DNA from: Candidatus Methylomirabilis sp.
GTDB lineage: Bacteria > Patescibacteriota > Patescibacteriia > DYHP01
NCBI GenBank assembly: GCA_020724105.1
Contig: DYHP01000004.1
Location: forward strand, 1-32,258
Length of the DNA: 32,258 bases
Direction of reading: 5' to 3'
Positions 2,225 through 32,258 of this stretch are shown here, piece after piece. Every line of letters begins with the position of its first letter. Within the stretch, counting starts at the first letter, position 1. The notes beneath the pieces are model-generated. The model saw nothing but the letters and a program-made list of their open reading frames with translations. It ran no database searches and was not told where the DNA came from. The translations under genes were made by a program, and so were the position numbers.

Positions 2225-2686
2225 CTACCTCAACATTTTATCCAATATTTTTCTCATCACCTTCACATCCGCCCGACCCTCTGTTTCTTTCATGGTCAAT
2301 CCGATAAAATACTGAAGCACCTCGACCTTGCCCGATTTATAATCTTGAACTTGTTTGGGATTGTTTTTAATTATGTTTTGGATTATTTCGGCAAGTTTCT
2401 CTTCGTCGTCCATTTTGCCCAGCCGTTTTTCTTCCATGATATGCGACGGGTCGGAGCCGGCCAAAAGCATTTCTTCAAGAACCGTCATTGCCGCCTGGCC
2501 TGAAATCTGATTTTGGTAAATTAATGTAATAAATTCGGCAAAATTTTCAGGCGAAATCCCCCTTCCCTCCCCCTTTATAAAGGGGGATAAGTGGGGGATT
2601 TTATGCTTTTCTATTAAACCGAATAATTTGGTTATTAACCAAGTTGATGTCAATCTAGCGAGTTTCTTTTTATGCTCTTCATTCAT
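2225..2686 (-). CDS. gatB: GatB C-terminal tail (GatB/YqeY-like) domain as a separate or frameshifted ORF
   Basis: The ORF-track protein 2225-2737 ends ...GKVEVLQYFIGLTMKETEGRADVKVMRKILDKMLR, typical of the GatB C-terminus. An internal ATG (MNEEHKKKLARL...) at 2686-2684 lies 11 nt after the TAA of the upstream gatB ORF. The frame differs from 2698-3843. Confidence 0.7.
   Translation of the reverse strand: MNEEHKKKLARLTSTWLITKLFGLIEKHKIPHLSPFIKGEGRGISPENFAEFITLIYQNQISGQAAMTVLEEMLLAGSDPSHIMEEKRLGKMDDEEKLAEIIQNIIKNNPKQVQDYKSGKVEVLQYFIGLTMKETEGRADVKVMRKILDKMLR
2554..2602 (-). repeat. Family C C-run/G-run hairpin (in-frame in the gatB C-terminal ORF)
   Basis: AAATCCCCCTTCCCTCCCCCTTTATAAAGGGGGATAAGTGGGGGATTT. 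It translates as IPHLSPFIKGEGRGIS. Confidence 0.7.
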
Positions 2687-2697
2687 AAAATGGGAAA

Positions 2698-3843
2698 TTA
2701 AATCTCTTCTTCGTGTTCCGGTTGTGATTTGACCCACTCATAAAGCTCTGATATCACTTTTTCGGTGTAATTGGCGAGGTGTAAGTCGTCGGTTAAAATT
2801 TTGGCGTCCGAAGCGTTAAAGCCGTATTCGTCTTGGAATCTCTGGCGTTTGGCAGCGGGCAATTCGGGAATTTTGTTTTTGAGCATCTCTCGAAATTCAA
2901 TCAAATTAAGCGGCGGGGTGTCGGGTTCGGGGAAGTAGCGGTAATCGTGCGATTCTTCCTTGATCCGCTGCTCCTCGGTGATGCCTTTTGTTTCATTCCA
3001 ACCGCGCGTTGATTGATACTTTGGCGGTTTGCCTTTTTCAAAAAGTTTTGTTTGGCGGATGATTTCATACTCCAGGGCGCGTTCGACGGCTTTGAAGGAA
3101 TTAAGATTTTTGATTTCGGTCTTCGGGTTAATAGGTCCTATGGGTCCAATAGGACTTATGGGTCCTAAAGGAGATAAAGAGATGTTGGCGTCAACTCGTA
3201 GATGGCCTTTTTCCATATCGGCGGAGGTAATGCCGAGATAGCGCATTATGAGCCGCAATTCCTGAAGAAAAATTTTCGCTTCCTGCGGGGAGCGGATGTC
3301 GGGCTCAGTAACGATTTCTAAAAGCGGGGTTCCTGAACGATTGAAATCAATGTATGTAGAAGCCATGTGCAAAAGCTTGGCCGCGTCTTCTTCAAGGTGG
3401 ACGCGCGCGAGGCGGATTTTAGTAGAAGCAGATTGACGCTGATTGAGTGCGCTGATTAACGCTGAAGAACTCCCTCCCTTACCCTCCCCCTTTTCAAGGG
3501 GGAGGGATGGGGTGGGGGATATTTCAAGATAACCTTGCCGCCCAATGGGTTTATCAAACTGTGAAATTTGGTAACCTTTGGGCAAGTCGGGGTAAAAATA
3601 ATTTTTGCGGTCGAATTTTGAAAAATCCAAAATCCCGCAATTTAAAGATAGTGCGGCGAGCACCGCATATTCTATCGCTCGCTTGTTTGGAACCGGCAAC
3701 ACGCCCGGATGACCCATGCAAACGGGGCAGATGGTGGTGTTGGGGGATTTGTCTTCGCCGGAATTGTCACAGGCGCAAAACATCTTAGATTTTGTTTTGA
3801 GTTGGACATGGATTTCTAATCCTATTATTGGAATATAATTCAT
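2698..3843 (-). CDS. gatB: Asp/Glu-tRNA amidotransferase subunit B, N-terminal catalytic part (ends early at TAA 2700-2698)
   Basis: MNYIPIIGLEIHVQLKTKSKMFCAC..., RVHLEEDAAKL and EIKNLNSFKAVERALEYEIIRQ are GatB hallmarks. It carries two in-frame repeat insertions (3470-3520 and 3129-3168). Confidence 0.85.
   Translation of the reverse strand: MNYIPIIGLEIHVQLKTKSKMFCACDNSGEDKSPNTTICPVCMGHPGVLPVPNKRAIEYAVLAALSLNCGILDFSKFDRKNYFYPDLPKGYQISQFDKPIGRQGYLEISPTPSLPLEKGEGKGGSSSALISALNQRQSASTKIRLARVHLEEDAAKLLHMASTYIDFNRSGTPLLEIVTEPDIRSPQEAKIFLQELRLIMRYLGITSADMEKGHLRVDANISLSPLGPISPIGPIGPINPKTEIKNLNSFKAVERALEYEIIRQTKLFEKGKPPKYQSTRGWNETKGITEEQRIKEESHDYRYFPEPDTPPLNLIEFREMLKNKIPELPAAKRQRFQDEYGFNASDAKILTDDLHLANYTEKVISELYEWVKSQPEHEEEI
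3129..3168. repeat. 9-mer family, in-frame in gatB
   Basis: TAATAGGTCCTATGGGTCCAATAGGACTTATGGGTCCTAA, translated as LGPISPIGPIGPIN just before the conserved EIKNLNSF block. Confidence 0.8.
3470..3520 (-). repeat. Family C hairpin (in-frame in the gatB N-terminal ORF)
   Basis: CTCCCTCCCTTACCCTCCCCCTTTTCAAGGGGGAGGGATGGGGTGGGGGAT. It translates as ISPTPSLPLEKGEGKGGS. Confidence 0.7.
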
Positions 3844-4693: not shown

Positions 4694-4702
4694 ATGTTTA
4701 AT

Positions 4703-4783
4703 AACACTGAACTCACAGAACATTACACGGAATAACAACGAAGTTTTCCGTGTGGTTCTGTGTTAAGTTCAGTAGATTCGGTG
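4703..4783. repeat. Family F hairpin (words TTCCGTGT, GGTTCTGTGTTA, GTTCAG, TTCGGTG), copy 1
   Basis: Left arm AACACTGAACTCACAGAACATTACACGGAA and right arm TTCCGTGTGGTTCTGTGTTAAGTTCAGT. It lies directly 5' of the membrane-protein ATG at 4693. Confidence 0.7.
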
Positions 4784-5572: not shown

Positions 5573-5622
5573 CATAAAACCTATAGGACCTTATAAGACC
5601 TTTAGGACTTATAGGACTAATA
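5573..5622. repeat. 9-mer family, dut-tmk spacer
   Basis: CATAAAACC TATAGGACC TTATAAGAC CTTTAGGAC TTATAGGAC TAATA. It overlaps the dut stop. Confidence 0.8.
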
Positions 5623-6051
5623 AAAACCGGTAGAGCCGATGCCGCCGCGCGAATTATTTTTATTTTCTTTCGTCTCTTCCAACTCGGCTCTTTCTATTTT
5701 CACCAGAATCGCCTGGGCGAGCCGCTCCCCTCTTTTTATTTCCGCTTCTTTGTCGCTGAAATTAAAAAGTTCAAGTTTTATTTCATCGTCCGGTCCGCAA
5801 TAATCTTGATCCAAAATCCCCACGCAATTCGCCAAAGTCAGTCCCTTTTTGACGGGCAAACTGCTGCGCGGAGCGAGCATTAGCATGAAACCGGGCGGAA
5901 CTTCAACGATTAAATTCGCCGGCGCGATTTTAATTTCTTTCGGCTTTATAACAATGTCTTCGCGGGAATATAAATCAAACGCGACAGAACCCGAAGTTTG
6001 GTATTGAGGGGCCGGCAAAGAGGGATCGATAAGGTGGATTTTTAGTTTCAT
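5617..6051 (-). CDS. dut: dUTP diphosphatase
   Basis: 144 aa with dUTPase motifs (AFDLYS, PRSSL, GILDQDY, GGIGSTG). Confidence 0.8.
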   Translation of the reverse strand: MKLKIHLIDPSLPAPQYQTSGSVAFDLYSREDIVIKPKEIKIAPANLIVEVPPGFMLMLAPRSSLPVKKGLTLANCVGILDQDYCGPDDEIKLELFNFSDKEAEIKRGERLAQAILVKIERAELEETKENKNNSRGGIGSTGFY

Positions 6052-7284: not shown

Positions 7285-7292
7285 AAATTTCT

Positions 7293-7337
7293 GATAGGAC
7301 TGATAAGTCCAATAAGACCAACGGGTCTCATAGGATT
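7293..7337. repeat. 9-mer family, nusG-rplK spacer
   Basis: GATAGGACTGATAAGTCCAATAAGACCAACGGGTCTCATAGGATT. Confidence 0.75.
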
Positions 7338-8171: not shown

Positions 8172-9389
8172 TCAATAGTCTTTTAGAAACTTCTTGATTT
8201 CCCCCGCCGCCTCTTTGTAATTCTTCACCCACTTAATATTCCGATTTCTTCTAAACCAATTCATTTGGCCTCTTACGTATTTGTGGGTGCGGAACTTGAT
8301 TTTCTGCCCCGCTTCTTCAAGAGTGGTTTTGCCATTCATATAGTCGAGAATTTCTTTGTAACCAATGCCCGATAGGGCGGGGATTTTGGAAATTAGTTTT
8401 ATAGAAATTGGAAATTGGTTATGGAAAGCAGAAACTGAAAATTGGTTTTTTCCATTTTCTATTTTCTGTTTTCTATCACTAATTTCTAATTTCTGAACAG
8501 CTATTTTCTTTTTAAAATAATCAATAAGACATTTCGTTTCCCCCACCAATCCTTGTTTAATCATCTCCTCAACCCTCGCATCTATTCTTTTGTACAACTC
8601 ATGCCTGGGGACTTTAATTCCTATCTGCAAAGTATTAAAGAGCGGTTTTTCGGGTACCCGAAATACATTCTTCTTTTGTAAAGAGGAGTTAATGGGGGTT
8701 ATGTTTTGGCGTTCGGCGGCGTTGTTGTGGCGTTTTTTGGCTTCTACTAAAACTTCCAACGCGCGAATAATGCGCCTCTTATTTTCTAAATCAACGATTT
8801 TAGGCGCCGCCGGGTCTAATTTTTTTAATTGTTTAATTAAAATTTTTAAATCTTTTTTTTCCAATTTTTTTCTAAGCTTCCAGTTTGGAGGAACTTTGGG
8901 AATTGCCAAATTTTCACTTAAGGCGTGGAGATAAAACGCCGTGCCGCCGCAAATGATAGGAATTTTTCCGCGGCAAATTATATCGCGCGCAATTTTGGTT
9001 GCCATTTCTTTGAATTCAGCGACGGAGAAAATCTGGTCGGGTTCAAGAAAACCGATTAAATAATGTTGAATGCCTTTGTATAAACAAGGAGTAGAAGCCA
9101 GTTTTGCGCCATCACTACGCCAATTTACGCCAGCAACCCTCTCATTTTCAGGTACCTGAAAAATATTATGTAAAGGGGAGTTAGCGGGGGTTGTGTTTTG
9201 GCGTTTGGCGGCGTTGTTATGGCGTTTCGTGGCTTCTATGCGCGGGGCGGCTGTGCCGATTTTCATCCCTTTGTAAATTTGCCGCGAGTCGGCGCCGATA
9301 ATTTCGCCGTTAAATTTTTTGGCGATCTTAATAGCGAGTTCAGTCTTGCCGCAACCCGTCGGGCCAGTGATAATAATAATTCTTTTCAT
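8172..9389 (-). CDS. miaA: tRNA dimethylallyltransferase, enlarged by three repeat-derived in-frame inserts
   Basis: MKRIIIITGPTGCGKTELAIKIAKKFNGEIIGADSRQIYKGMKIGTAAP is MiaA-like. At 405 aa it is longer than the roughly 300 aa I recall for typical MiaA; the excess maps to repeats at 9092-9238, 8646-8746 and 8383-8493. Confidence 0.88.
   Translation of the reverse strand: MKRIIIITGPTGCGKTELAIKIAKKFNGEIIGADSRQIYKGMKIGTAAPRIEATKRHNNAAKRQNTTPANSPLHNIFQVPENERVAGVNWRSDGAKLASTPCLYKGIQHYLIGFLEPDQIFSVAEFKEMATKIARDIICRGKIPIICGGTAFYLHALSENLAIPKVPPNWKLRKKLEKKDLKILIKQLKKLDPAAPKIVDLENKRRIIRALEVLVEAKKRHNNAAERQNITPINSSLQKKNVFRVPEKPLFNTLQIGIKVPRHELYKRIDARVEEMIKQGLVGETKCLIDYFKKKIAVQKLEISDRKQKIENGKNQFSVSAFHNQFPISIKLISKIPALSGIGYKEILDYMNGKTTLEEAGQKIKFRTHKYVRGQMNWFRRNRNIKWVKNYKEAAGEIKKFLKDY
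8383..8493 (-). mobile_element. Family B AT-rich palindromic element (in-frame in miaA)
   Basis: 87-bp core at 8402-8488 bounded by TAGAAATT...AATTTCTA. It translates as KLEISDRKQKIENGKNQFSVSAFHNQFPISIKLISKI. Confidence 0.7.
8646..8746 (-). mobile_element. Family A element, diverged right half plus centre (in-frame in miaA)
   Basis: TTTTCGGGTACCCGAAA...GGCGTTGTTGTGGCGTTTTTTGGCTTCTA. It translates as EAKKRHNNAAERQNITPINSSLQKKNVFRVPEKP. Confidence 0.6.
9092..9238 (-). mobile_element. Family A element, copy 3 (in-frame in miaA)
   Basis: Same length (147 bp) and termini, with about 8 substitutions relative to the argS copies. It translates as EATKRHNNAAKRQNTTPANSPLHNIFQVPENERVAGVNWRSDGAKLAST. 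Confidence 0.75.
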
Positions 9390-9394
9390 AAGAT

Positions 9395-9447
9395 GAATAG
9401 GACAAATAAGTCCAAGCAGTCCGATAGGACGAATGGAAGGAATGGGA
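9395..9447. repeat. 9-mer family, miaB-miaA spacer
   Basis: GAATAGGACAAATAAGTCCAAGCAGTCCGATAGGACGAATGGAAGGAATGGGA fills the spacer. Confidence 0.75.
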
Positions 9448-10662
9448 TTATCTATTGATTAAATCGTTTAATATCCGCCAGCGACGTTTTTTCACCTCGC
9501 GCGGAATATCATCTGGGAAATTTTTATAAGCGAACGTTCTGCTTCGCGGCGAGTACATAGAGATATAAGCGATGTTGAAACCGACTTTTTTGCAAAGTTT
9601 TATGGTGTTCTGAAATTGTTTTTCCGTTTCGCCGGGAAAGCCGACGATAATGTCCGTTCCCAACTCAATGCTGGGTTTTGCTTTTCTCACTTTTTTTATG
9701 ATTTTTAAATAATCTTTGGCAGCATATTTCCGATTCATTGTGCGCAAAATTTTATCATCGCCGGATTGAACCGGCAAATGCAGATAATTTACCATTTTTG
9801 GCAATGCCAAAGCTTTTATTGTTTCATCGTTCATATAACGAGGATGAGGGGCGGTGAAGTGAAGTCGTTTTAATCCTTCTAATTGATTCAATTCCCATAA
9901 CAGAGCGGCGAAATGATTTTTAAAAGGATCCTTTTTAGAAAAATTTTCCGGGTCGGGAGCAACCCATTTATTAACAATCTGGCCGAGGAGAATTATTTCT
10001 ATCGCGCCTTCGCGAATCAATTTTTTCGCTTCGCGCAAAATTTCTTTAAGCGGCCTGTTATATTCCCTGCCGCGCGCGTAAGGCACAACGCAATAAGAAC
10101 AAAACTCATTGCATCCAGTTTGAATCGTGAGGTAACGGGAGGTGGCAAAGTCGGATCTGGGCAAGATAGACAAATAGTCGCCTGCGCTGCAAATTTTAGA
10201 AATTGGTTGTTTAGAAATTGGAAATTGGTTATGGAAAATAGAAAGTGGAAATTGGCTTTTGCTATTTTCTATTTTCTGTTTTCTATTACTAATTTCTATT
10301 TTCCATAAAGCTAATTTCTGCGCCAAAGATGGCAATTCATCTATTCTGAAAAAAAGGTCCGCGCCGAAAAGTTTTTTGCGGATTTTCCCATCTTTATCGC
10401 GGCCGACCAGACAGCCGGTAACGGCGATAATTGGTTTAGAGGCCAGCGTTTTTGTAGGGTTGTTATGGCGTCTTGTGGCTTCTACTAACCCGAATACCCT
10501 GTCTTCGGCCGTTTGGCGAACCGAGCAGGAATTTATAACGATAAAATCGGCCGAATTTTTGTCTTTGGCTTTTTTCATCCCCATTTTTTCCAAAACTGCG
10601 GCAATTCTCTCGGAATCATTTTTATTCATCTGACAGCCGTATGTAACTATGCAGTATTTCAT
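9448..10662 (-). CDS. miaB: MiaB-family radical-SAM tRNA methylthiotransferase
   Basis: MKYCIVTYGCQMN start and the CNEFCSYC radical-SAM cluster motif. I prefer the start at 10662 (or 10668), because the track start at 10740 lies within an intergenic hairpin repeat. It carries the in-frame repeat at 10193-10303. Confidence 0.82.
   Translation of the reverse strand: MKYCIVTYGCQMNKNDSERIAAVLEKMGMKKAKDKNSADFIVINSCSVRQTAEDRVFGLVEATRRHNNPTKTLASKPIIAVTGCLVGRDKDGKIRKKLFGADLFFRIDELPSLAQKLALWKIEISNRKQKIENSKSQFPLSIFHNQFPISKQPISKICSAGDYLSILPRSDFATSRYLTIQTGCNEFCSYCVVPYARGREYNRPLKEILREAKKLIREGAIEIILLGQIVNKWVAPDPENFSKKDPFKNHFAALLWELNQLEGLKRLHFTAPHPRYMNDETIKALALPKMVNYLHLPVQSGDDKILRTMNRKYAAKDYLKIIKKVRKAKPSIELGTDIIVGFPGETEKQFQNTIKLCKKVGFNIAYISMYSPRSRTFAYKNFPDDIPREVKKRRWRILNDLINR
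10193..10303 (-). mobile_element. Family B element (in-frame in miaB)
   Basis: 87-bp core at 10212-10298 with the same termini, roughly 85-90% identical by eye to the miaA copy, in the same orientation and frame (KIEISNRKQKIENSKSQFPLSIFHNQFPISKQPISKI). Confidence 0.7.
10457..10484 (-). mobile_element. Family A right-end fragment (in-frame in miaB)
   Basis: GGGTTGTTATGGCGTCTTGTGGCTTCTA matches the element's right terminus. It translates as EATRRHNNP. Confidence 0.45.
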
Positions 10663-10667
10663 ATTCA

Positions 10668-10760
10668 TTCGGTGTTGTTCCGTGTAATATTCCGTGTGTT
10701 CAATGATAAAATGTTTTAACACAGAACCAATCTGAACCATACACCGAACTACACGGAATT
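10668..10760. repeat. Family F hairpin, copy 2
   Basis: TTCGGTGTTGTTCCGTGTAATATTCCGTGTGTTCAA...AACACAGAACCAATCTGAACCATACACCGAACTACACGGAA. It lies directly 5' of the miaB ATG at 10662. Confidence 0.7.
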
Positions 10761-10813: not shown

Positions 10814-10949
10814 AGGGTGTAAGAATTGAGATTAAAAATTTGGCTCAATTTACTACAAAATAACACTAAGAACCGCGAATAGGAACGCTAAAAACCGCGA
10901 AAATTTTGTGGTGCTTCGCGTCCCTTATTCGTGGTACTTCGCGTCATCT

Positions 10950-12273: not shown

Positions 12274-12367
12274 ATAAATCGCTACTTTACGCAACTGGCT
12301 ACGCAACTGAACGCCATTTATTTATGCGTCAAGTTGCGTTGTAAGTCGCGTTAAGTTGCTTCTAAAT

Positions 12368-14354: not shown

Positions 14355-14576
14355 ATATTTAAAATTCCTAATTCCCAATTTCTAATTCCTAATAAAATGC
14401 CAAATTATAAAGTTCAAATTATCCCGGCAACGAAGTTGCCTAGGGAATTTGATACAATTTGGATTTTGACATTTGGATTTTTATTAGGCCTTAGGTGAAT
14501 TAGGTGAATTTGATCTTCTATTATAAGAATGGCCGCCAATTACTAATTTACCTTAATCATCATAAAAAATCAATGT

Positions 14577-16571
14577 CTATACTCGTTGAAGCGGTTTTAT
14601 CCCCAACAACTTCATCCCTTGTTCAAACGTTTCGGCTATCTTTTTTATAAATAAAATGCGTTGCGTTCTGACGGATTCCGGGGCGTTAAGGACCGGCGTT
14701 GTTTCATAAAAATCATTAAATTTTTTTGCCAAATCATAAAGGTAAAGCGCCAGGTCTGAAGGGTCGAGATTTTTAGCGGACAACTCTATTGTTTCCTCAT
14801 ATTTGGCAAGATGCATTATCAAATTATTTATAGAAGCCATCTTTACGCCATCACCACGCCAATTTACGCCAGCAACCCTCTCATTTTCAGGTACCTGAAA
14901 AATATTATGTAAGGGGGAGTTGGCGGGGGTTGTGTTTTGGCGTTTGGCGGCGTTGTTATGGCGTTTTTTGGCTTCTACGAGAATGCTCTGTGTTCTGGCA
15001 TAGGCATATTCCAAATAAACGCCTGTTCTGCCCAACAAACTGACCGATTCCTCCGGCCTAAAAAGCAATTCCGATTTTGGGTCAACCTGCAAAATATAAA
15101 ATTTCAGCGCCGCCAAAGCCAAATTTTTAATAGAAGCCATCTTTACGCCATCACCACGCCAATTTACGCCAGCAACCCTCTCATTTTCAGGTACCTGAAA
15201 AATATTATGTAAGGGGGAGTTGGCGGGGGTTGTGTTTTGGCGTTTGGCGGCGTTGTTATGGCGTTTTTTGGCTTCTATAATTAGCATTTTCTCTAATTGT
15301 TCAATCAAATCATCGGCATCCACCCTTGCGCCTTCCCGCGATTTTAATTTTCCTTCGGGCAAAAGAACGAGGCCGTAATTTAAATGGAATAATTTTTCCA
15401 CAAAAGGCGCGCCAACAACTTCAAAAATTTTAAACAATTGCTTGAAATAATAATCCTGTTCGGAAGCGACAATATAAATCATTTTGTCAAATTTAAAATC
15501 CTTCGCTCTCTGAAACGCAAGTTCAATGTCATTTGTGGCGTAAACCGATGTGCCGTCGGCGCGCAACACGACCTTGTTTGCCAAACCGAACTTCGCCAAA
15601 TTCGCGATAATATTGCCTTTTTCGTCTTTTTTCAAAAATTTATTTTTAAAATATTCCGCCGCTCTTTTCTTCGCTTTTTTATAAATTTGACTTTCAAAAT
15701 AAATTTTGTCGAACTTTATGCCCAAATTTTTAAATGTTTCGTCAAACCCCCGAAGCGCCCAGTTGTTCATTTTTTTCCACAACGCGACAGTCGGCTTGTC
15801 GCCCGCCTCCCACTTTTTTAACAATTCGTACGCCTCATTTAGAAGCGACGGATTTTCTTTGGCTTTTTCACCGAATAAAACATAGTACCGCCCGACGAAC
15901 GCGTCGCCTTTTTCGGTTTTAGATTTAAGATTTAAAATTTCAGATTTGAATTTTTCTTCGGATTTCGGACCTGTTCCGTAGCGTCGCGAAGCGTCTGCTT
16001 CGGGGTTTCGAATCTCGGATTTCCGCTGCGAAGCAGTGGCTGGCGTTTCGCCATAACCAAATTTCTGGTAAGCAAGCATTGATTTGGCAATGTGGATCCC
16101 GCGGTCATTGACCAACGAGGTGCGGATAACTTTCGCGCCCCGCAATTCCAATATATTGCTTAACGCCTCGCCCAAAAGACCGTTCCGGACATGACCCAGA
16201 TGAAGCGGTTTGTTGCTGTTGGGAGAAACGTATTCTATTACCACCTTTTTAGATTTAAGATTTAAGTTGTCAGATTTAAGTTGTTTTTTTGTTAAAATTT
16301 CTCCGGCGATCTTTTCTTTATCCAAAATAAAATTTAAATAAGGACCCGCGATTCTGATTTCTTTTATATAAGGGTTCTTGGCGATGAAATCTTCCAATTT
16401 ATTTTTGAGTTCCTCCACCTTAGTTGTAAGTTGTAAACCGTGGCACGGCAGCGCCAAATCGCCCATTTCGGGTTTGGGCGGGTACTCAAAAACATCAGCC
16501 GTTATTGGCGATGGCAAGTGCTTATTAATCTCCTCTGCCAGATTTTGTTTCAGGGTCTTGAGAGAGAACAT
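14577..16571 (-). CDS. argS: Arginine--tRNA ligase carrying four repeat-derived in-frame inserts
   Basis: HLGHVRNG (HIGH-like) motif and a DALR-type C-terminus (YLEYAYARTQSIL ... LYLYDLAKKFNDFYE). 664 aa; roughly 150 aa map to repeats at 14831-14977, 15131-15277, 15917-16041 and 16248-16285. Confidence 0.9.
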   Translation of the reverse strand: MFSLKTLKQNLAEEINKHLPSPITADVFEYPPKPEMGDLALPCHGLQLTTKVEELKNKLEDFIAKNPYIKEIRIAGPYLNFILDKEKIAGEILTKKQLKSDNLNLKSKKVVIEYVSPNSNKPLHLGHVRNGLLGEALSNILELRGAKVIRTSLVNDRGIHIAKSMLAYQKFGYGETPATASQRKSEIRNPEADASRRYGTGPKSEEKFKSEILNLKSKTEKGDAFVGRYYVLFGEKAKENPSLLNEAYELLKKWEAGDKPTVALWKKMNNWALRGFDETFKNLGIKFDKIYFESQIYKKAKKRAAEYFKNKFLKKDEKGNIIANLAKFGLANKVVLRADGTSVYATNDIELAFQRAKDFKFDKMIYIVASEQDYYFKQLFKIFEVVGAPFVEKLFHLNYGLVLLPEGKLKSREGARVDADDLIEQLEKMLIIEAKKRHNNAAKRQNTTPANSPLHNIFQVPENERVAGVNWRGDGVKMASIKNLALAALKFYILQVDPKSELLFRPEESVSLLGRTGVYLEYAYARTQSILVEAKKRHNNAAKRQNTTPANSPLHNIFQVPENERVAGVNWRGDGVKMASINNLIMHLAKYEETIELSAKNLDPSDLALYLYDLAKKFNDFYETTPVLNAPESVRTQRILFIKKIAETFEQGMKLLGIKPLQRV
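14831..14977 (-). mobile_element. Family A 147-bp palindromic element, copy 1 (in-frame in argS)
   Basis: Termini TAGAAGCC...GGCTTCTA, central palindrome TTTTCAGGTACCTGAAAA, and arms that are imperfect inverted copies rich in ACGCC/GGCGT words. It translates as EAKKRHNNAAKRQNTTPANSPLHNIFQVPENERVAGVNWRGDGVKMASI. Confidence 0.75.
15131..15277 (-). mobile_element. Family A element, copy 2 (in-frame in argS)
   Basis: 147/147 nt identical to 14831-14977, exactly 300 bp away, in the same orientation and reading frame. Confidence 0.75.
15917..15950. repeat. AGATTTA heptamer array, in-frame in argS
   Basis: TTTTAGATTTAAGATTTAAAATTTCAGATTTGAA, translated as FKSEILNLKSKT. Confidence 0.7.
16248..16285. 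repeat. AGATTTAAG array, in-frame in argS
   Basis: TTTAGATTTAAGATTTAAGTTGTCAGATTTAAGTTG, translated as QLKSDNLNLKSKK. Confidence 0.7.
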
Positions 16572-16682
16572 GTCCTATCAAATTTTTAATTTTAAATTTT
16601 TAATTTTTAAACTGGGTTAAAAATTAAGCCAATAAAAATTTAAATAAAAATTAAGAATTAAAAATTGAAAATTACTATTTAT

Positions 16683-16907: not shown

Positions 16908-18434
16908 ATGGAAATCTTAATCGTCTTAATACTGGCCGCGGCCTGCGTCGGCGGTTTTTTGGGTTATTTAATCAGAAGCGAGGTGGCTAAAAGAAGGGCG
17001 GCGAGCGCCGAGGCGCGCGCGGGAAAAATCATAAGCGACGCCAAAACTCGAGCCCAGGAATTTTTAATAAGAACAAAAGAAAAAGGGCTGCAAATCATTG
17101 AGGAAGCCAAGAAAGAAGAAACCGAGAGAAGAAAAACATTGCTTGAACACGAAAAAAGATTGGAAAAAAGAGAATCGCTCTTTGACCAAAAACTTTTGGA
17201 ATCCCAGGAAAAGCAGCAAAAACTGCAGGACAAACTGCGCGAAATCGAGGAGATAAAATTAAAAATAAACCAATTAAAAGACCGAATATTGGGGGAATTG
17301 CAAAGGATTTCATCGCTTAGCGTGGAGGAGGCCAAGCAAGAAATTTTGAAACGCGTGGAAGACGACGTGAAAGACGAAGCGCTTTCAAGAATCAGGAAAC
17401 TTGAACAGACCGCGGCGGAAGAACTTGAAAACAAAACAAAAGAACTGATTGGCGATATCTTGCAAAGAGTGGCGATTTCGCACGCTGTGGAAATCACCAC
17501 CACCAGCGTTAATTTGCCCAACGACGAAATGAAAGGAAGAATTATCGGCAAAGAAGGCAGAAACATCAGGACCATAGAACAATTAACCGGCACCGAACTT
17601 ATTATTGACGAAACGCCGAACACAATAACCGTTTCAAGTTTCTCCCCCATCCGCCGCCAAATCGCCAAACGGGCGCTCGACAAACTCATTGCCGACGGCA
17701 GAATCCAGCCGGCGCGCATTGAAGAAGCGATTGACATCTCCAAAAAAGAATTGGCGATAGAAATTAAAAAAGCCGGCGAAGACACTTTGTATTCTTTGGG
17801 GCTTGAAATCGCGGGATACGACCCAAAGCTCATCCAAATCTTAGGCAGATTGAAATTCAGGACAAGTTACGGACAAAATGTTTTGCAGCACTCAATCGAA
17901 GTGGCGTACTTGTCCGCGCTTTTGGCCCAAGAATTGGGGCTCAACGCTTCATTGGCGAAAAAAGGCGGTTTGTTCCATGACGTCGGCAAGGCGGTTGACC
18001 AGGAAGTGCAGGGAACTCATCCTGAAATCGGCTATAATATTTTGAAAAAATTCGGCCTTCCCGAAGACGTCGCTTATTGCGCCTTGGGACATCATGAAGA
18101 CAAGCCAAAAACCATTGAAGCGATATTGGTGAAAACCGCCGATGCCATATCGGGCGCGAGGCCGGGCGCGCGCAAAGAAACGCTTGAACAATACATCCAA
18201 AGGTTGGAAGATTTGGAAAAAGTCGCCACCGGTTTTTCGGGCGTGGAAAAAGCCTACGCCATCCAAGCCGGCCGAGAAATCAGAGTTTTCGTTAAACCCG
18301 ACCAAATCGACGATTTGTCGGCGTTTAATTTGGCTCGCGACATTGCCAAACAAATAGAAACGGAATTAAGATACCCGGGCGAAATCAAGGTGACGGTCAT
18401 CAGGGAAACCCGCGCCATTGAATACGCGAGATAA
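16908..18434 (+). CDS. rny: Ribonuclease Y
   Basis: N-terminal TM helix, coiled-coil, KH domain (GRIIGKEGRNIRTIE) and HD domain (HSIEVA...LFHDVGKA...GHH). Confidence 0.93.
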   Translation: MEILIVLILAAACVGGFLGYLIRSEVAKRRAASAEARAGKIISDAKTRAQEFLIRTKEKGLQIIEEAKKEETERRKTLLEHEKRLEKRESLFDQKLLESQEKQQKLQDKLREIEEIKLKINQLKDRILGELQRISSLSVEEAKQEILKRVEDDVKDEALSRIRKLEQTAAEELENKTKELIGDILQRVAISHAVEITTTSVNLPNDEMKGRIIGKEGRNIRTIEQLTGTELIIDETPNTITVSSFSPIRRQIAKRALDKLIADGRIQPARIEEAIDISKKELAIEIKKAGEDTLYSLGLEIAGYDPKLIQILGRLKFRTSYGQNVLQHSIEVAYLSALLAQELGLNASLAKKGGLFHDVGKAVDQEVQGTHPEIGYNILKKFGLPEDVAYCALGHHEDKPKTIEAILVKTADAISGARPGARKETLEQYIQRLEDLEKVATGFSGVEKAYAIQAGREIRVFVKPDQIDDLSAFNLARDIAKQIETELRYPGEIKVTVIRETRAIEYAR

Positions 18435-18484
18435 TAAGACCTTTAGGACCTATAGGACCCATTAGTCCGATTGGACTCATAAGA
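18434..18484. repeat. 9-mer family, rny-ymdB spacer
   Basis: ATAAGACCTTTAGGACCTATAGGACCCATTAGTCCGATTGGACTCATAAG. Confidence 0.8.
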
Positions 18485-18492
18485 TTTAATTT

Positions 18493-22440: not shown

Positions 22441-22450
22441 GCAAACAAAA

Positions 22451-22527
22451 ATCCTATAAGTCCTATAGGACCTATAAGTCCTATGTGTCCTATAAGTCCT
22501 ATAAGTCCTATAGGACTTATAGGCCCG
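22451..22527. repeat. Tandem array of about 8 units of the 9-mer TCCTATAAG/TCCTATAGG
   Basis: TCCTATAAG TCCTATAGG ACCTATAAG TCCTATGTG TCCTATAAG TCCTATAAG TCCTATAGG ACTTATAGG. It contains the perfect 24-bp palindrome CTATAAGTCCTATAGGACTTATAG and overlaps the rpoC stop codon. Confidence 0.9.
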
Positions 22528-25500
22528 ATTTATAACCGGTTCCGGTCGGAATCAATCTGCCGATGATGACATTTTCCTTCAAACCTTCAAGTTTGTCAAG
22601 GCGGCCGGTTGTCGCGGCGTTAATCAAAACGCGGGCGGTTTCCTGGAACGAAGCAGCTGATAAAAAGCTCATTGACGAGAGCGAAACGCGACTGATGCCC
22701 ATAAACAAATCCTTGGATGTCGCCTTTTTACCGCCGCTTTTCGCCATTTTCTCGTTCTCTTCTTCATAATACCAGCGCTCGACAATCTCGCCGGGCAACA
22801 TTTCAGTATCTCCCGGATCCTCAATTAACACGCGGGAAAACATTTGTTTTATGATTACCTCGATATGCTTGTCGTTTAATCTCTGACCTTGTGAACAATA
22901 AATTTTTTGGATGTTTTGGAGAATATAGCGTTGCGTCGCTTCCTTGCTTTTGAAATGATAGAGTTCTTGCAAATCCAAACTGCCTTCGGTCAAGGGATCG
23001 CCGGCCGTAACATATTCGCCATCCTTGACATGCAAGACATAGCCGGCCGGAATGATAAATTCCTTGACGATTTTCCCCTGCCAAGTCACTTTGACGATTT
23101 TGTCGCTTAGGGAGACCGCGCCCGATTTTTTGGCAACGACAAACTTACCATCTTCGCGCTCGATTAAAACCTCACCTTCCTTGATTTTCCCGCCGTCTTT
23201 TGCTCTGACTTTGTCTTTTGCGCCGAAGCGGTACGAAAATTCTTCGCTTCCTTCTTTTGACACTTCAACGATTCTCTGGGTTAAAACCGTACCCTTGTGA
23301 GCCTTGTCAATGTCTTTCACCTTGACTTCGCCGTCCGTGTCCGCGGTTATGGCGCGGTTTTTCGGCGGACGCGCTTCAAAAAGTTCTTCAACGCGAGGCA
23401 AACCTTGGGTAATGTCGAGCCCGGCCACGCCGCCGGTATGAAACGTTCTCATGGTAAGCTGAGTGCCTGGCTCGCCGATTGATTGGGCGGCGATAATGCC
23501 GACTGGCGCGCCTTCTTTGACAATCTGGTTATAAGCCAAATCATGGCCGTAGCATTTGGCGCAAACGCCTTTTTGGGATTTACAGCTTAAAACGCTCCTG
23601 ACTTTAGATTCTTTAATCTTGTGAGCGGCGAGTTCGCGGGCGATTTTGTGAGTAATCAACTCCCCCTTTTTCAACAATATTTTATTATTAACATCTTTCA
23701 GGTCTTGGGCTAAGAATCTGCCGACGAGCCTCTCAAAAAAACTCATGCCCAAATCGTTACTTTCTTCGGCGGTAATGAATATGCCGTCAGACGTCCCGCA
23801 ATCGTCCATTCTGATAATTATATCCTGTGAAACATCAACCAAACGCCTGGTTAAATAACCGGATGAAGCAGTGCGGACTGCGGTATCCGCCAAGCCTTTT
23901 CTCGTGCCGTGAGTTGAAATGAAATATTCCAAAACATCCAACCCTTCCTTAAAACTACGCTTGACCGGCAACTCAATAACGTTGCCGGCGGGATTAACCA
24001 CCAAACCCTTCATGCCCATCATCTGGGTGAGCTGCCCCCAGCTGCCGCGCGCCCCGGAATCAATCATGCTGTAGACCGAACCGCCTTTGTCCAATTTTTC
24101 CTTGCAGAGCTGGGTTATTCTGTCTTTGGTGGCGTCCCAAATGCCGATGATTTTGCTGTACTTTTCCTTAAAAGTCAAAAGCCCTTCCTCGTAAAGCGAC
24201 TCAATCCCGGCCACTTGTTTGTTGGCTTCTGTTATTAATTCGTTCTTTTCGGGCAAATCGGGAACCTCTTCCAAACTCCAGGTGTAACCAGATTTGGTGA
24301 TGTAGTAAAAGCCCGTTTCCTTGATGTCGTCCAAAATCTTAGCCGTCGCTTCGGGACCGTAAAATTCAAGACACATCCTGATGATTTCGCCTAACTTTTT
24401 GACATTTAGCGCCTCATTTTTGAAAGGTATTTCGGCCGGCAATCTTTGCCAGAAAATAACGCGGCCGACCGTGGTGTCCGTAATTTTCCCCCTGAATCTC
24501 ACTTTTATCGGTTCGTGCAAGGTAATTTTGCCAAGTTCATAAACCATTAGCGCCTCTTTCTCGTCGGCAAATGATTTGGGCTTGTCGCGATTTTTGCCCC
24601 ATGCTCCCAAAGTCAAAAAGTAACAGCCCCAGGCAATGTCTTTGTTTGGCGTGGCAATAGGCTGGCCCGTGCCCGGCTTTAACAAATTGCGGACGGAAAG
24701 CATGCGTTCGGCGGCCTCTTTATTGGCTTCCTCGGTGAGAGGAACGTGAACAGCCATCTGATCGCCGTCAAAGTCCGCGTTATAAGCAACGCAGACCATC
24801 GGATGGATTTGAATCGCTTTGCCTTCCACAAGCACCGGCTGAAAGGCCTGGATGCCCAAACGATGGAGCGTCGGGGCGCGATTGAGCATCACGTAGGCGT
24901 TCTTGATAATGTCTTCCAAAATATCCCAAACCTCCGGTCTGTCGCTTTCAATGAAACGATTGGCGCTTTTAATGTTGTGGACGAAGTCGGCGAGGATTAA
25001 TTTACTGATAAGAAAAGGCCTGAAAAGCTCAAGCGCCATTCTTTTCGGCAGACCGCATTGGTGCATTTTGAGACTAGGATTGACGACAATGACGCTGCGA
25101 CCGGAGTAATCAACCCGTTTGCCCAAAAGATTTTGGCGGAAACGGCCCTGCTTGCCTTTCAAGATGTCGGCGAGCGACCTTAATTCGTGTTTCGCTCCCG
25201 CGCCTGCCGCTCCTTTGGTTTGGCGGGCGCTGTTGTCAATTAAAGCGTCAACCGCCTCCTGCATCATTCTTCTTTCGTTTCGGCAAATAACCTCTGGCGC
25301 GTTCAACTCCGTCAATCTTTTCAAACGATTGTTTCTGTTTATAATGCGGCGGTATAAATCGTTTAAATCAGAAGTGGCGTAACGTCCGCCGTCAAGCGCC
25401 ACCATGGGCCTTAAATCCGGCGGAATGACGGGCACATTCTTCAAAATCATCCATTCGGGCCTGATGTTTTGTTTTTTTAAACTCTTTAAAAGTTTCAGGC

Positions 25501-26377: not shown

Positions 26378-26575
26378 ATTCGCTCACGCTCAAAATTAAA
26401 AATTAAAAATCAAATATCAAAAATAAATTTTAAATTTTTAATTTTAAATTTTTATTGAATTTTCAATTTCAAATTTCAAAACGGTTTTAAATGTTTAAAA
26501 ATTAAGTAAATAAAAATTGTTTAAAAATTTTAAATTATAAATTAAAAATTGGAAGATGGTTTTTTGGTTTTTAGT
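26378..26575. repeat. 198-bp extremely AT-rich spacer built from AAAATTA-type heptamers and inverted copies
   Basis: AAAATTAAAAATTAAAAATCAAATATCAAAAATAAATTTTAAATTTTTAATTTTAAATTTTT... lies between the rpoB stop and the rpoC start. Confidence 0.8.
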
Positions 26576-31319: not shown

Positions 31320-31364
31320 ATAAGTCCTATAAGTCTCCTATAAGTCCTATAGGTCTTATAGGTT
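31320..31364. repeat. 9-mer family, rnj-trpS spacer
   Basis: ATAAGTCCTATAAGTCTCCTATAAGTCCTATAGGTCTTATAGGTT. Confidence 0.8.
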
Positions 31365-31367
31365 AAA

Positions 31368-32258
31368 TTATACTTCAATCACCACCGGCAAGACCATCGG
31401 CCGCCGTTCGGTTTTTTTGAAAAGAAACTCGCCGATTTCGTTTCTAATCCTGTTTCTTGTATACATATTGTCCAGCGGCGACTTGGGGTCTTTGTCGCGA
31501 ATAATGCGCCTGACTCTCTCGCGCATATCTTCTATTAATTTCTTGTTTTCTTTGAGATAAACAAACCCGCGCGAAATAATGTCAGGACTGCCGGTGAGCG
31601 CGCCGGTTTTGCTTAGAACCGTGGCGATAATCACGACCATGCCGTCTCGGGCGAGGACTTTTCTGTCGCGCAACACAATGTCGCTTACGTCGCCCACGCC
31701 CAAGCCGTCGACAAACACGTAATCGGTCGGCAAAATTTCATTGGTTAAAACCGCCCTCCCTTTCTCAAACTCAATCACTTGACCGTTGGTTGAAATGATG
31801 ACTTTTTCCTTGGGGAAACCCGCGGCCTCGGCGACTTTGGCGTTTTCGCGGAGCATATATTGGCTTCCTTCAATGGGAATGTAATATTTCGGTTTAAGCA
31901 AAGAGAGTATTAATTTAATGTCGTCGTTTTTAGCGTGGCCGCCGGCGTGAACATCCATCATTTGATAATGAATTATTTCCGCGCCTTTTTTGACTAAAGT
32001 GTCTTTGAGCCGCGAAATGGTTCTTTCGTTACCCGGGACAACAGATGAAGAAAAAATGATGGTGTCACCGGGTTTAATTTGGACGGATTTATGTTCGCTA
32101 TTGGCAATTCTCATCAGCACCGCTTGTTCCTCGCCTTGGGCGCCGGTGCAAAGAATTATCACTTTGTCGTCAGGTAAATGATTGACTTGGGCAATGTCAA
32201 TAAGCGTATGGGGGTGATGTTTGATATAACCCATTTTGCGGGCGATTTCCACGTTTGT
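31368..32258 (-). CDS. rnj: Ribonuclease J, C-terminal two-thirds; 5' end beyond the window
   Basis: beta-CASP/metallo-beta-lactamase family sequence (...MMDVHAGGHAKNDDIKL...YIPIEGSQYML...). The frame stays open to the window edge at 32258. Confidence 0.85.
   Translation of the reverse strand, partial: TNVEIARKMGYIKHHPHTLIDIAQVNHLPDDKVIILCTGAQGEEQAVLMRIANSEHKSVQIKPGDTIIFSSSVVPGNERTISRLKDTLVKKGAEIIHYQMMDVHAGGHAKNDDIKLILSLLKPKYYIPIEGSQYMLRENAKVAEAAGFPKEKVIISTNGQVIEFEKGRAVLTNEILPTDYVFVDGLGVGDVSDIVLRDRKVLARDGMVVIIATVLSKTGALTGSPDIISRGFVYLKENKKLIEDMRERVRRIIRDKDPKSPLDNMYTRNRIRNEIGEFLFKKTERRPMVLPVVIEV

Follow-up and report, generated by a model that had tools for sequence, protein, structure and literature searches.

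A heptamer-armed palindromic repeat read in frame within the adjacent miaA and miaB genes of a Patescibacteria contig, and its probable dispersal

The window analysed here, one whole NCBI contig of 32,258 nt (DYHP01000004.1), contains two copies of a palindromic repeat, family B, one within miaA, which encodes tRNA dimethylallyltransferase, and one within the adjacent gene for a miaB-type methylthiotransferase. Both copies lie in frame and are apparently read as part of the host protein. Here it is proposed that family B is probably a dispersed, non-autonomous palindromic repeat of Patescibacteria, similar in behaviour to the Rickettsia palindromic elements (RPE), which is tolerated in frame in a permissive loop of MiaA and a permissive linker of MiaB.

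Family B in the miaA and miaB genes

The genes and repeat copies of the locus are listed below, with lengths in amino acids (aa) for the proteins.

8172..9389, (-) strand: miaA (tRNA dimethylallyltransferase), 405 aa, intact; Pfam IPPT (4.4e-61) and PDB MiaA matches
9448..10740, (-) strand: miaB-type methylthiotransferase, 430 aa, intact; UPF0004 and Radical_SAM domains, PDB 7mjv MiaB (2.5e-63)
8382..8510, (-) strand: family B copy 1, in frame in miaA, aa 294-336, peptide KKIAVQKLEISDRKQKIENGKNQFSVSAFHNQFPISIKLISKI; from direct repeat D10 and alignment
8402..8488: palindromic core of copy 1, 87 nt, with GGAAATT/AGAAAAT-type heptamer arms and the loop near 8446-8452; from sequence and fold
10192..10320, (-) strand: family B copy 2, in frame in miaB, aa 141-183, peptide QKLALWKIEISNRKQKIENSKSQFPLSIFHNQFPISKQPISKI; in the UPF0004/radical-SAM linker
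10212..10298: palindromic core of copy 2, 87 nt; from sequence, inverted repeat and fold

Repeat finding and MAFFT alignment define family B as a 127-nt direct repeat (8383-8509 and 10193-10319) with 86% identity between the copies, which are separated by 1.8 kb, occupy neighbouring genes and are directly oriented. Expressed in codons, each copy corresponds to 43 of them (8382-8510 and 10192-10320), giving a unit of about 127-129 nt. The inner core of 87 nt, bounded by TAGAAATT and AATTTCTA, was found at 8402-8488 and 10212-10298, just where the original prediction for this DNA had placed it; beyond the core, the similarity continues for 16-21 nt on either side, and the outer 19-20 nt pair too. 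The same prediction had described a repeat of about 111 bp with 85-90% identity, of which the repeat and its identity hold, but not the length, the unit being neither 87 nor 111 nt. Both copies share an identical 26-mer, TAGAAATTGGAAATTGGTTATGGAAA, for which the window has no other match at up to 3 mismatches (expectation from shuffled sequence, 0.00). A third copy was not found in the 32-kb window, where a second arm probe and a nucleotide hidden Markov model (HMM) returned the same two loci only. By inspection, the element has about 26% GC, compared with 40-52% GC across the window.

Copies in other genomes

According to RpoB, the host belongs to Patescibacteria, its nearest named relatives having about 70% identity and about five sequences having at least 82%. 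Four syntenic loci (L016, L017, L018 and L019) were reached through MiaA homologues and come from independent NCBI, JGI and ENA assemblies. When each species was represented by one genome, exact matching of a 24-mer gave a single match, located between genes in a metagenome-assembled genome of Candidatus Curtissbacteria (L001), and an exact 20-mer scan of JGI metagenomes gave 14 contigs, about seven of them with related heptamer palindromes or arrays and the rest chance or eukaryotic matches. The nucleotide HMM was then used on the fetched contigs and the relatives, and located the following copies.

L017 (GCA_040961635.1), 9304-9396: genic copy inside MiaB, about a quarter of the model missing
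L011, 7603-7726: full-length intergenic copy
L001 (JACPEV01), 891-1006, 1719-1846 and 5702-5830: three intergenic copies within 5 kb
L002, L003/L012 and L009: intergenic copies

The intergenic copies, at least seven in total, span the whole spacer from one flanking gene to the next. The genic copy of L017 follows the NFSKxNPF motif of MiaB in the same orientation and frame as the window copies (peptide VKKIDVQKLEISNRKWKIKNRKSQFPVSNFNN...), and is 86% identical to the miaA copy of the window over 94 nt; the window has no insert at this MiaB site (PFKNHF). Family B is thus present at MiaA and MiaB sites as a presence/absence polymorphism between related genomes, and the main argument for its being copied to new places is that its sites differ among genomes and have empty counterparts. 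The additional copies outside the window that the original prediction expected from a census are represented by the L017 copy, at its different MiaB site, and by those of L001, L002, L003/L012, L009 and L011. Pure heptamer arrays with a single arm, and 20-nt units in tandem, are present as well in L013 and L003. About 37 kb of extra DNA from relatives (L020-L022) gave no further strong copy.

The miaB genes of the window and L017 have 74% nucleotide identity (57.5% at third positions), against 86% for the element copies, as would be expected if the copies were much younger than the split between the genomes, or if the source copies were constrained at the level of the DNA or the hairpin. A peptide profile built from the two 43-aa peptides gave three weak matches among 1.84 billion representative proteins, in a search that did not return the window's own proteins either. 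Two of the matches (P0122 and P0123) are short open reading frames (ORFs) with similar peptide motifs, probably read across comparable repeats, and the other (P0121) is an unrelated repetitive protein.

Hairpin structure and reading frame

Each copy of family B is one long imperfect palindrome. On the + strand, the 5' arm is an array of GGAAATT/AGAAATT-type heptamers broken by a GTTATG 6-mer and the 3' arm is the matching CTATTTTC/CTAATTTC array; in copy 1, this strand, on which the G-rich arm comes first, is antisense to miaA. RNAalifold applied to eight copies from four sources gives 36 conserved pairs, with an unpaired or mismatched position at about every 7th base. Fold and alignment therefore agree with the original prediction of a palindromic family with heptamer-built arms, carried in frame by both genes. 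The number of heptamer units varies among the copies, as does the position of their ends, which read RGAAATTRG...CYAWTTTCY and are simply the outermost heptamers of the full palindrome.

The folding energies of the window copies are -50.8 and -57.0 kcal/mol on the + strand (z = -11.2 and -11.7 against shuffles) and -27.2 and -21.6 kcal/mol on the mRNA (-) strand (z = -5.8 and -4.8). The + strand hairpin includes 7-9 G:U pairs, whose counterparts on the mRNA strand are A-C mismatches. Because this asymmetry is common to the L011 and L003 copies and absent in those of L001, L002 and L009, it is treated as a subfamily trait, and the GC skew of the window offers no usable strand signal that would account for it. 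Family B has no match to an Rfam family, a relaxed search giving only sub-threshold, plant-miRNA-like matches of the generic long-hairpin kind, and a promoter and terminator scan around the elements gave nothing that implicates the hairpins and no convincing + strand promoter or terminator. A self-splicing intron was rejected for want of an Rfam intron match, as was an intein, for which an insert of 43 aa is far too short and the Cys/Ser...His-Asn junctions are missing.

No stop codon interrupts the used frame in any of the three genic copies, against 3-7 in each other coding-strand frame; in the miaB and L017 copies, a frame of the opposite strand is free of stops as well. In the copies between genes, nearly all frames contain stops. 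Since the frame in use is the only stop-free one on the coding strand and the intergenic copies are ridden with stops, the shared frame is attributed to survival and not to targeting; the original prediction was right that both window copies are read in the same frame, but this carries little weight. At the 20 of 129 positions where the window copies differ, 18 differences fall in nonsynonymous codon pairs and 2 in synonymous ones, so the family B peptide is not conserved as such and is not under purifying selection.

Inserts in the MiaA and MiaB proteins

The miaA gene contains three inserts, one of family B and two of family A, and miaB contains one of family B and a partial one of family A, which bears out the description of an insert-rich gene pair in the original prediction. 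Family A is a separate palindrome whose length is exactly 147 nt, or 49 codons; its 9-nt ends (TAGAAGCCA/TGGCTTCTA) are perfect, and a TTTTCAGGTACCTGAAAA palindrome forms its centre. The argS gene also contains it in frame, in two copies 300 nt apart, and shorter versions occur at the same MiaA and MiaB positions in the relatives. The copies in the window are as follows.

9092-9238, 14831-14977 and 15131-15277: full family A
8674-8746 and 10450-10484: partial family A, the latter the miaB remnant

The alignment of MiaA to solved structures breaks at query residue 290 (chain residue 229) and picks up again at 338 (chain residue 237), marking the family B segment (aa 294-336) as extra. An AlphaFold2 model of MiaA, built on a 79-sequence alignment, has a mean predicted local distance difference test (pLDDT) score of 82.8, with the core above 90 and the family A inserts below 50. 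In this model, family B extends the helix 281-311 and then continues as coil while pLDDT drops from 88 to 57-61. Foldseek matches the model best to crystal structures of MiaA, among them 2zm5, a complex with tRNA (template modelling score 0.80 on the target). On this model, the family B peptide would form a loop of about 43 residues that projects from the fold. In MiaB, the two Pfam domains (aa 28-129 and 205-383) flank the insert (aa 141-183), which falls in what is a variable linker in the 7mjv alignment. As the net gain relative to MiaB of L018 is only about 30 residues, the insert may have replaced part of the old linker.

As a separate observation, MiaB of all five related genomes stops right after the radical-SAM domain, without the TRAM domain, unlike 7mjv (457 aa). 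The corresponding ORFs are listed below.

Window, 9448-10740, (-) strand: MiaB without TRAM
L016, 8010-9830: MiaB without TRAM
L017, 8525-9943: MiaB without TRAM
L018, 8847-10004: MiaB without TRAM
L019, 7101-8525: MiaB without TRAM

Additionally, a 41-nt inverted repeat pair with 83% complementarity is found at the 5' ends of two ORFs of the window (4702-4742 and 10668-10708). Of the two, the one with which the miaB ORF opens is read as IIEHTEYYTEQHR and, by eye only, looks like the SLNHTELKHGTTQN part of the inserts in L016. The true start of miaB may be the downstream MKYCIVTYGCQMN rather than the annotated one.

Occupancy of the insert sites in related genomes

The lengths of both proteins differ among the five relatives, and these differences are blocks at a few fixed positions.

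MiaA: window 405 aa, L016 404, L017 366, L018 302, L019 355
MiaB: window 430 aa, L016 606, L017 472, L018 385, L019 474

At the MiaA site, 74 of the 79 orthologues, one close relative among them, have a loop of 8-9 residues; L018 has the plain loop. Long inserts are limited to the window and three of its closest relatives (48, 92, 60 and 25 residues); they start within 0-2 codons of one another and end just before (I/L/C)PALSGIGY. The segment is thus no shared feature of unrelated MiaA orthologues, in line with its description as an insertion. At MiaB site 1, the relatives hold other sequences and L018 has a short linker only. The five relatives are about equidistant from one another, which gives no order of gain and loss at the shared sites.

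When three loops were compared (the MiaA site and MiaB sites 1 and 2), several of the five relatives had inserts at each, and these belong to different repeat families. Local alignments of the MiaA-site inserts against the MiaB-site-1 inserts of the window, L016, L017 and L019 gave the following within-genome scores, with identical and aligned nucleotides in brackets.

Window: 164 (109/127)
L016: 143 (82/89)
L017: 67 (48/57)
L019: 28 (17/19)

Scores between genomes range from 15 to 49, with one exception (L017 MiaA against L019 MiaB, 71). Within a genome, the adjacent miaA and miaB sites therefore carry the same family in the same orientation, and the orthologous sites of sister genomes carry different families. 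The families are also clustered locally: the window has five copies of family A in 6.6 kb, family B has three in 5 kb of L001, and for the family of L016 there is a third copy 1.7 kb upstream, with no more in the remaining ~25 kb examined. MiaB site 1 of L017 keeps a QFPIS...SAG stretch resembling the 3' end of the window copy of family B, and this resemblance suggests turnover at an old site. The insertion hotspot proposed in the original prediction is therefore real but more complex than described, since the same loops hold different repeat families in relatives.

Origin of the inserts

On the favoured reading of family B as a dispersed repeat, heptamer-armed palindromes of about 125-130 nt would have spread in a set of Patescibacteria genomes of the candidate phyla radiation (CPR), arriving by a copy-and-paste process, with most copies settling in intergenic spacers. 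The two genic copies would persist by virtue of their permissive places, a surface loop in MiaA and the inter-domain linker in MiaB, and also of their stop-free orientation and frame. Transcription and translation of the gene would include them, so that each protein gains about 43 residues, and they would be neutral or mildly deleterious passengers.

Several observations weigh against this reading. The three genic copies, compared with empty sites, have no consistent target-site duplication, and the window contains no transposase, no REP-associated tyrosine transposase (RAYT/Y1) and no other candidate mobilising gene, such as the original prediction had suggested looking for. The ends of family B are fuzzy heptamer arrays without a sharp definition. 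Copies are few, with two in 32 kb and, elsewhere, one genome match and about seven relevant metagenome contigs from exact 20- to 24-mers, and the peptide census by profile and word-index searches, both poorly suited to the task, gave no further host proteins. Finally, different repeats in the same loops of relatives, matched within each genome, are not what random insertion predicts. The matched and clustered families hint at short-range copying or turnover, and the pattern would be predicted by short-range gene conversion or template switching between neighbouring hairpins, or by overwriting by the currently active family. A functional coupling between MiaA and MiaB is conceivable as the cause of the match, and is disfavoured because peptide constraint is lacking.

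Candidate duplications were rejected one after another. CTGCGC flanking the miaB copy implies a 137-nt insert, which breaks the frame, and is attributed to chance; AAA/AAA at miaA is not seen at other copies; and a TA duplication is incompatible with the frame, given the 147 nt of family A and, for family B, the 87-nt core. IS630 had been named among the candidate mobilisers in the original prediction, but a TA duplication of that type does not fit, as family A is exactly 147 nt including both TAs, and a duplication of 2 nt would break the frame. The suggestion that shared TAGAA...TTCTA ends reveal one machinery for families A and B is not supported, because in family B the motif bounds the inner core only and comes from the heptamer itself. 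Cassette exchange of a segment between the two copies was also rejected, as inner and outer gene-segment identities show no incongruence. Nothing points to a vector of phage or plasmid origin: viral contigs and a phage collection gave no match, and plasmids gave one chance match. With no target-site duplication and with fuzzy ends, the evidence leans away from a classical cut-and-paste MITE (miniature inverted-repeat transposable element) and toward hairpin- or repeat-mediated short-range copying, by template switching or gene conversion.

A more far-reaching version of short-range copying, held to be possible though rather doubtful, is that the inserts are no ordinary transposon copies and the permissive loops contain landing pads, i.e., hairpins or heptamer arrays that are repeatedly overwritten through short-range copying directed by hairpins or homology; in a stronger form, the match itself would be selected through miaB-miaA RNA-RNA pairing or association of the enzymes. 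This would explain the matched MiaA and MiaB inserts, the different families at an identical codon position and the clustering within a few kb. A purely local event is unlikely. It would consist of an insert formed in situ by slippage and fold-back in one gene and copied to its neighbour by ectopic gene conversion or duplication, with no dispersed family, and it draws on the sole two window copies being close together in adjacent genes and in direct orientation, on the local clustering of families in every genome examined and on the microsatellite-like arms with their varying unit number. Nevertheless, full or near-full copies with the same irregularities (the GTTATG 6-mer and the 7th-position mismatch) occur in genic and intergenic places of other genomes, and the L017, L011 and L001 copies largely refute it, convergence being implausible at 86% identity over 94-127 nt.

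The proposal that the repeat is a selected module, acting as a shared MiaA-MiaB association peptide, through copy-copy pairing in the miaB-miaA transcript or as a + strand antisense hairpin RNA, is judged improbable. The four related genomes with a family matched within the genome and differing between genomes would fit it, as would a hairpin that is conserved across copies and much stronger on the + strand; however, the peptide is unconstrained, the MiaA insert is absent from L018 and from 74 of the 79 orthologues, the L017 copy is at a different site, the G:U asymmetry is missing in the L001, L002 and L009 copies, and there is no convincing + strand promoter or terminator, no Rfam match and only mediocre AlphaFold2 confidence in the insert. 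Independent expansion in situ, that is, convergent heptamer slippage in each gene without copying between sites, is very improbable: one-armed heptamer arrays, the tandem 20-nt units of L013 and L003 and the variation of loop lengths among relatives suit it, but slippage cannot give 86% identity over 127 nt including the non-periodic parts, and the low GC of the element is set against that of the window. Least credible of all is an assembly or binning artefact in which repeat reads were spliced into the genes. The window does come from a metagenome assembly, and palindromic repeats are hard to assemble, but both inserts keep the frame and are stop-free, their flanks continue the conserved protein exactly, and comparable in-frame inserts occur in the independent assemblies from the three databases.

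Other repeats in the locus

Further short-unit palindromes or arrays of the window, with units GATTTAA, ACGCAAC and AATTTTT, are found at the following positions.

15915-15958 and 16245-16288: palindromes in frame in argS
12281-12359, 14382-14494, 16581-16674 and 26392-26454: in spacers, with a family D-like element at 14382-14494

The argS palindrome at 15915-15958 lies within a 38-aa insert unique to the window. Family D is found in frame in MiaA and MiaB of L017 and in MiaB of L019, and between genes in L017, L018 and L021.

Arrays of a 9-nt unit (TATAGGACC/TATAAGTCC, containing the palindrome CCTATAGG) fill several short spacers between consecutive genes of the window, and one lies inside gatB. 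The unit type is also found in frame (e.g., PISLINPMGLIGPI) at MiaB site 2 of L016 and L018.

1943-2010, 5593-5642, 7285-7334, 9388-9437, 18433-18492, 22446-22541 and 31339-31377: 9-nt-unit arrays in the window
3122-3180: 9-nt-unit array inside gatB

The gatB gene itself (2225-3843, (-) strand) consists of two overlapping ORFs, 2698..3843 (GatB_N) and 2225..2737 (GatB_Yqey), and includes two CCCCCTT-type palindromes (2554-2601 and 3465-3523); GatB of L017 is a single protein of 496 aa. The split could reflect a frameshift, an error of sequencing or a disruption associated with the repeats.

In L017, two separate inserts contain a small GC-rich hairpin (CCTATACGGCYCGTTGGGCC..CGGCCC), nested in both at one and the same point of a GGAAATTGG heptamer arm, at ~10830-10865 (MiaA insert) and ~9340-9375 (MiaB site 2 insert), in opposite orientations relative to the genes, and looks like a repeat inserted within a repeat. 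L017 also has two genes of the PDDEXK_3 nuclease family (PF13366; 14263-14655 and 16413-16877) amid housekeeping genes; as neither the window nor L018 has them at the syntenic places, they may be mobile nuclease genes.

Comparison with known repeats and implications

RPE are palindromic repeats of about 150 bp found in frame in many unrelated genes, compatible with the protein fold and described as having an unknown mobilising mechanism (Ogata et al. 2000, as summarised in PMC10969869). Similarly to RPE, family B is a dispersed palindrome in the range of 100-150 bp that occurs in frame in unrelated housekeeping genes and also between genes, would be read through as an extra peptide that may be compatible with the fold, comes with no known mobilising enzyme or target duplication, and resides in a small, reduced genome. 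It differs in its Patescibacteria host, in arms that are arrays of a 7-nt unit in variable number with fuzzy ends, and in the low copy number seen; the likeness is one of behaviour. RPE proper (RPE-1 to RPE-10) are tied to Rickettsia/Rickettsiales hosts, and the RpoB placement of the window's host in Patescibacteria sets family B outside them on the host criterion. To our knowledge, different families in the same loops of sister genomes, together with local clustering, have not been reported for RPE.

In-gene MITEs such as ERIC, BOX, Correia/NEMIS and cyanobacterial elements (PMC10969869, PMC2229807, PMC3184786) are likewise short, of non-coding size, hairpin-forming and multi-copy, with presence/absence differences and occasional in-frame fusions. 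Family B, unlike MITEs, has no target-site duplication, is as a whole one palindrome in which terminal inverted repeats hardly stand out from the body, and has no cognate insertion sequence in the window. As in the window copies of family B, the strength of the hairpin in ERIC is strand-dependent through G:U pairs. Repetitive extragenic palindromic (REP) sequences and bacterial interspersed mosaic elements (BIME) are extragenic, 20-40 nt long, with a GTAG/CGTC tag, and mobilised by RAYT (TnpA-REP) (PMC3733652). Family B shares with them intergenic palindromes that fill spacers, several in neighbouring spacers in L001; unlike REP, it is about 127 nt long and also occurs inside genes, the window copies have no tag, and the window has no RAYT/Y1 transposase gene. 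PARCEL of Mollicutes are reported to be tandem intragenic repeats encoding amphipathic modules with apparent functional use (PMC2996958), of which family B gives no evidence. PARCEL and the palindromic microsatellite-like repeats of Fusarium mitochondria (PMC7218506) resemble family B in being palindromic, repeat-built, translated or located in coding regions, and apparently mobile, and differ in hosts, sequences and contexts.

No report of such elements in Patescibacteria/CPR was found in the open-access full-text literature. Protein-coding palindromic repeats are a known class; the novelty of this case lies in the host group, in arms that are built of microsatellites and have fuzzy ends, and in an occupancy that is faithful to the site, locally clustered and matched within each genome.

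The genomes of Patescibacteria are very small and streamlined, and core genes with unexplained insertions have been noted in them before. The present analysis indicates that at least some of this additional protein stems from repeat DNA that was copied into genes, as happens in Rickettsia. Palindromic repeats would then behave convergently in two unrelated lineages with reduced genomes, and the analysis suggests that such repeats also remodel housekeeping proteins in the little-studied, ultra-small Patescibacteria/CPR. Inserts of this kind inflate and distort the alignments of orthologues, the calling of domains and the phylogenies built on CPR marker genes. If the pattern of matched, site-faithful clusters is true genome-wide, it would point to a copying mechanism other than classical transposition and to a way for essential enzymes to gain new loops.

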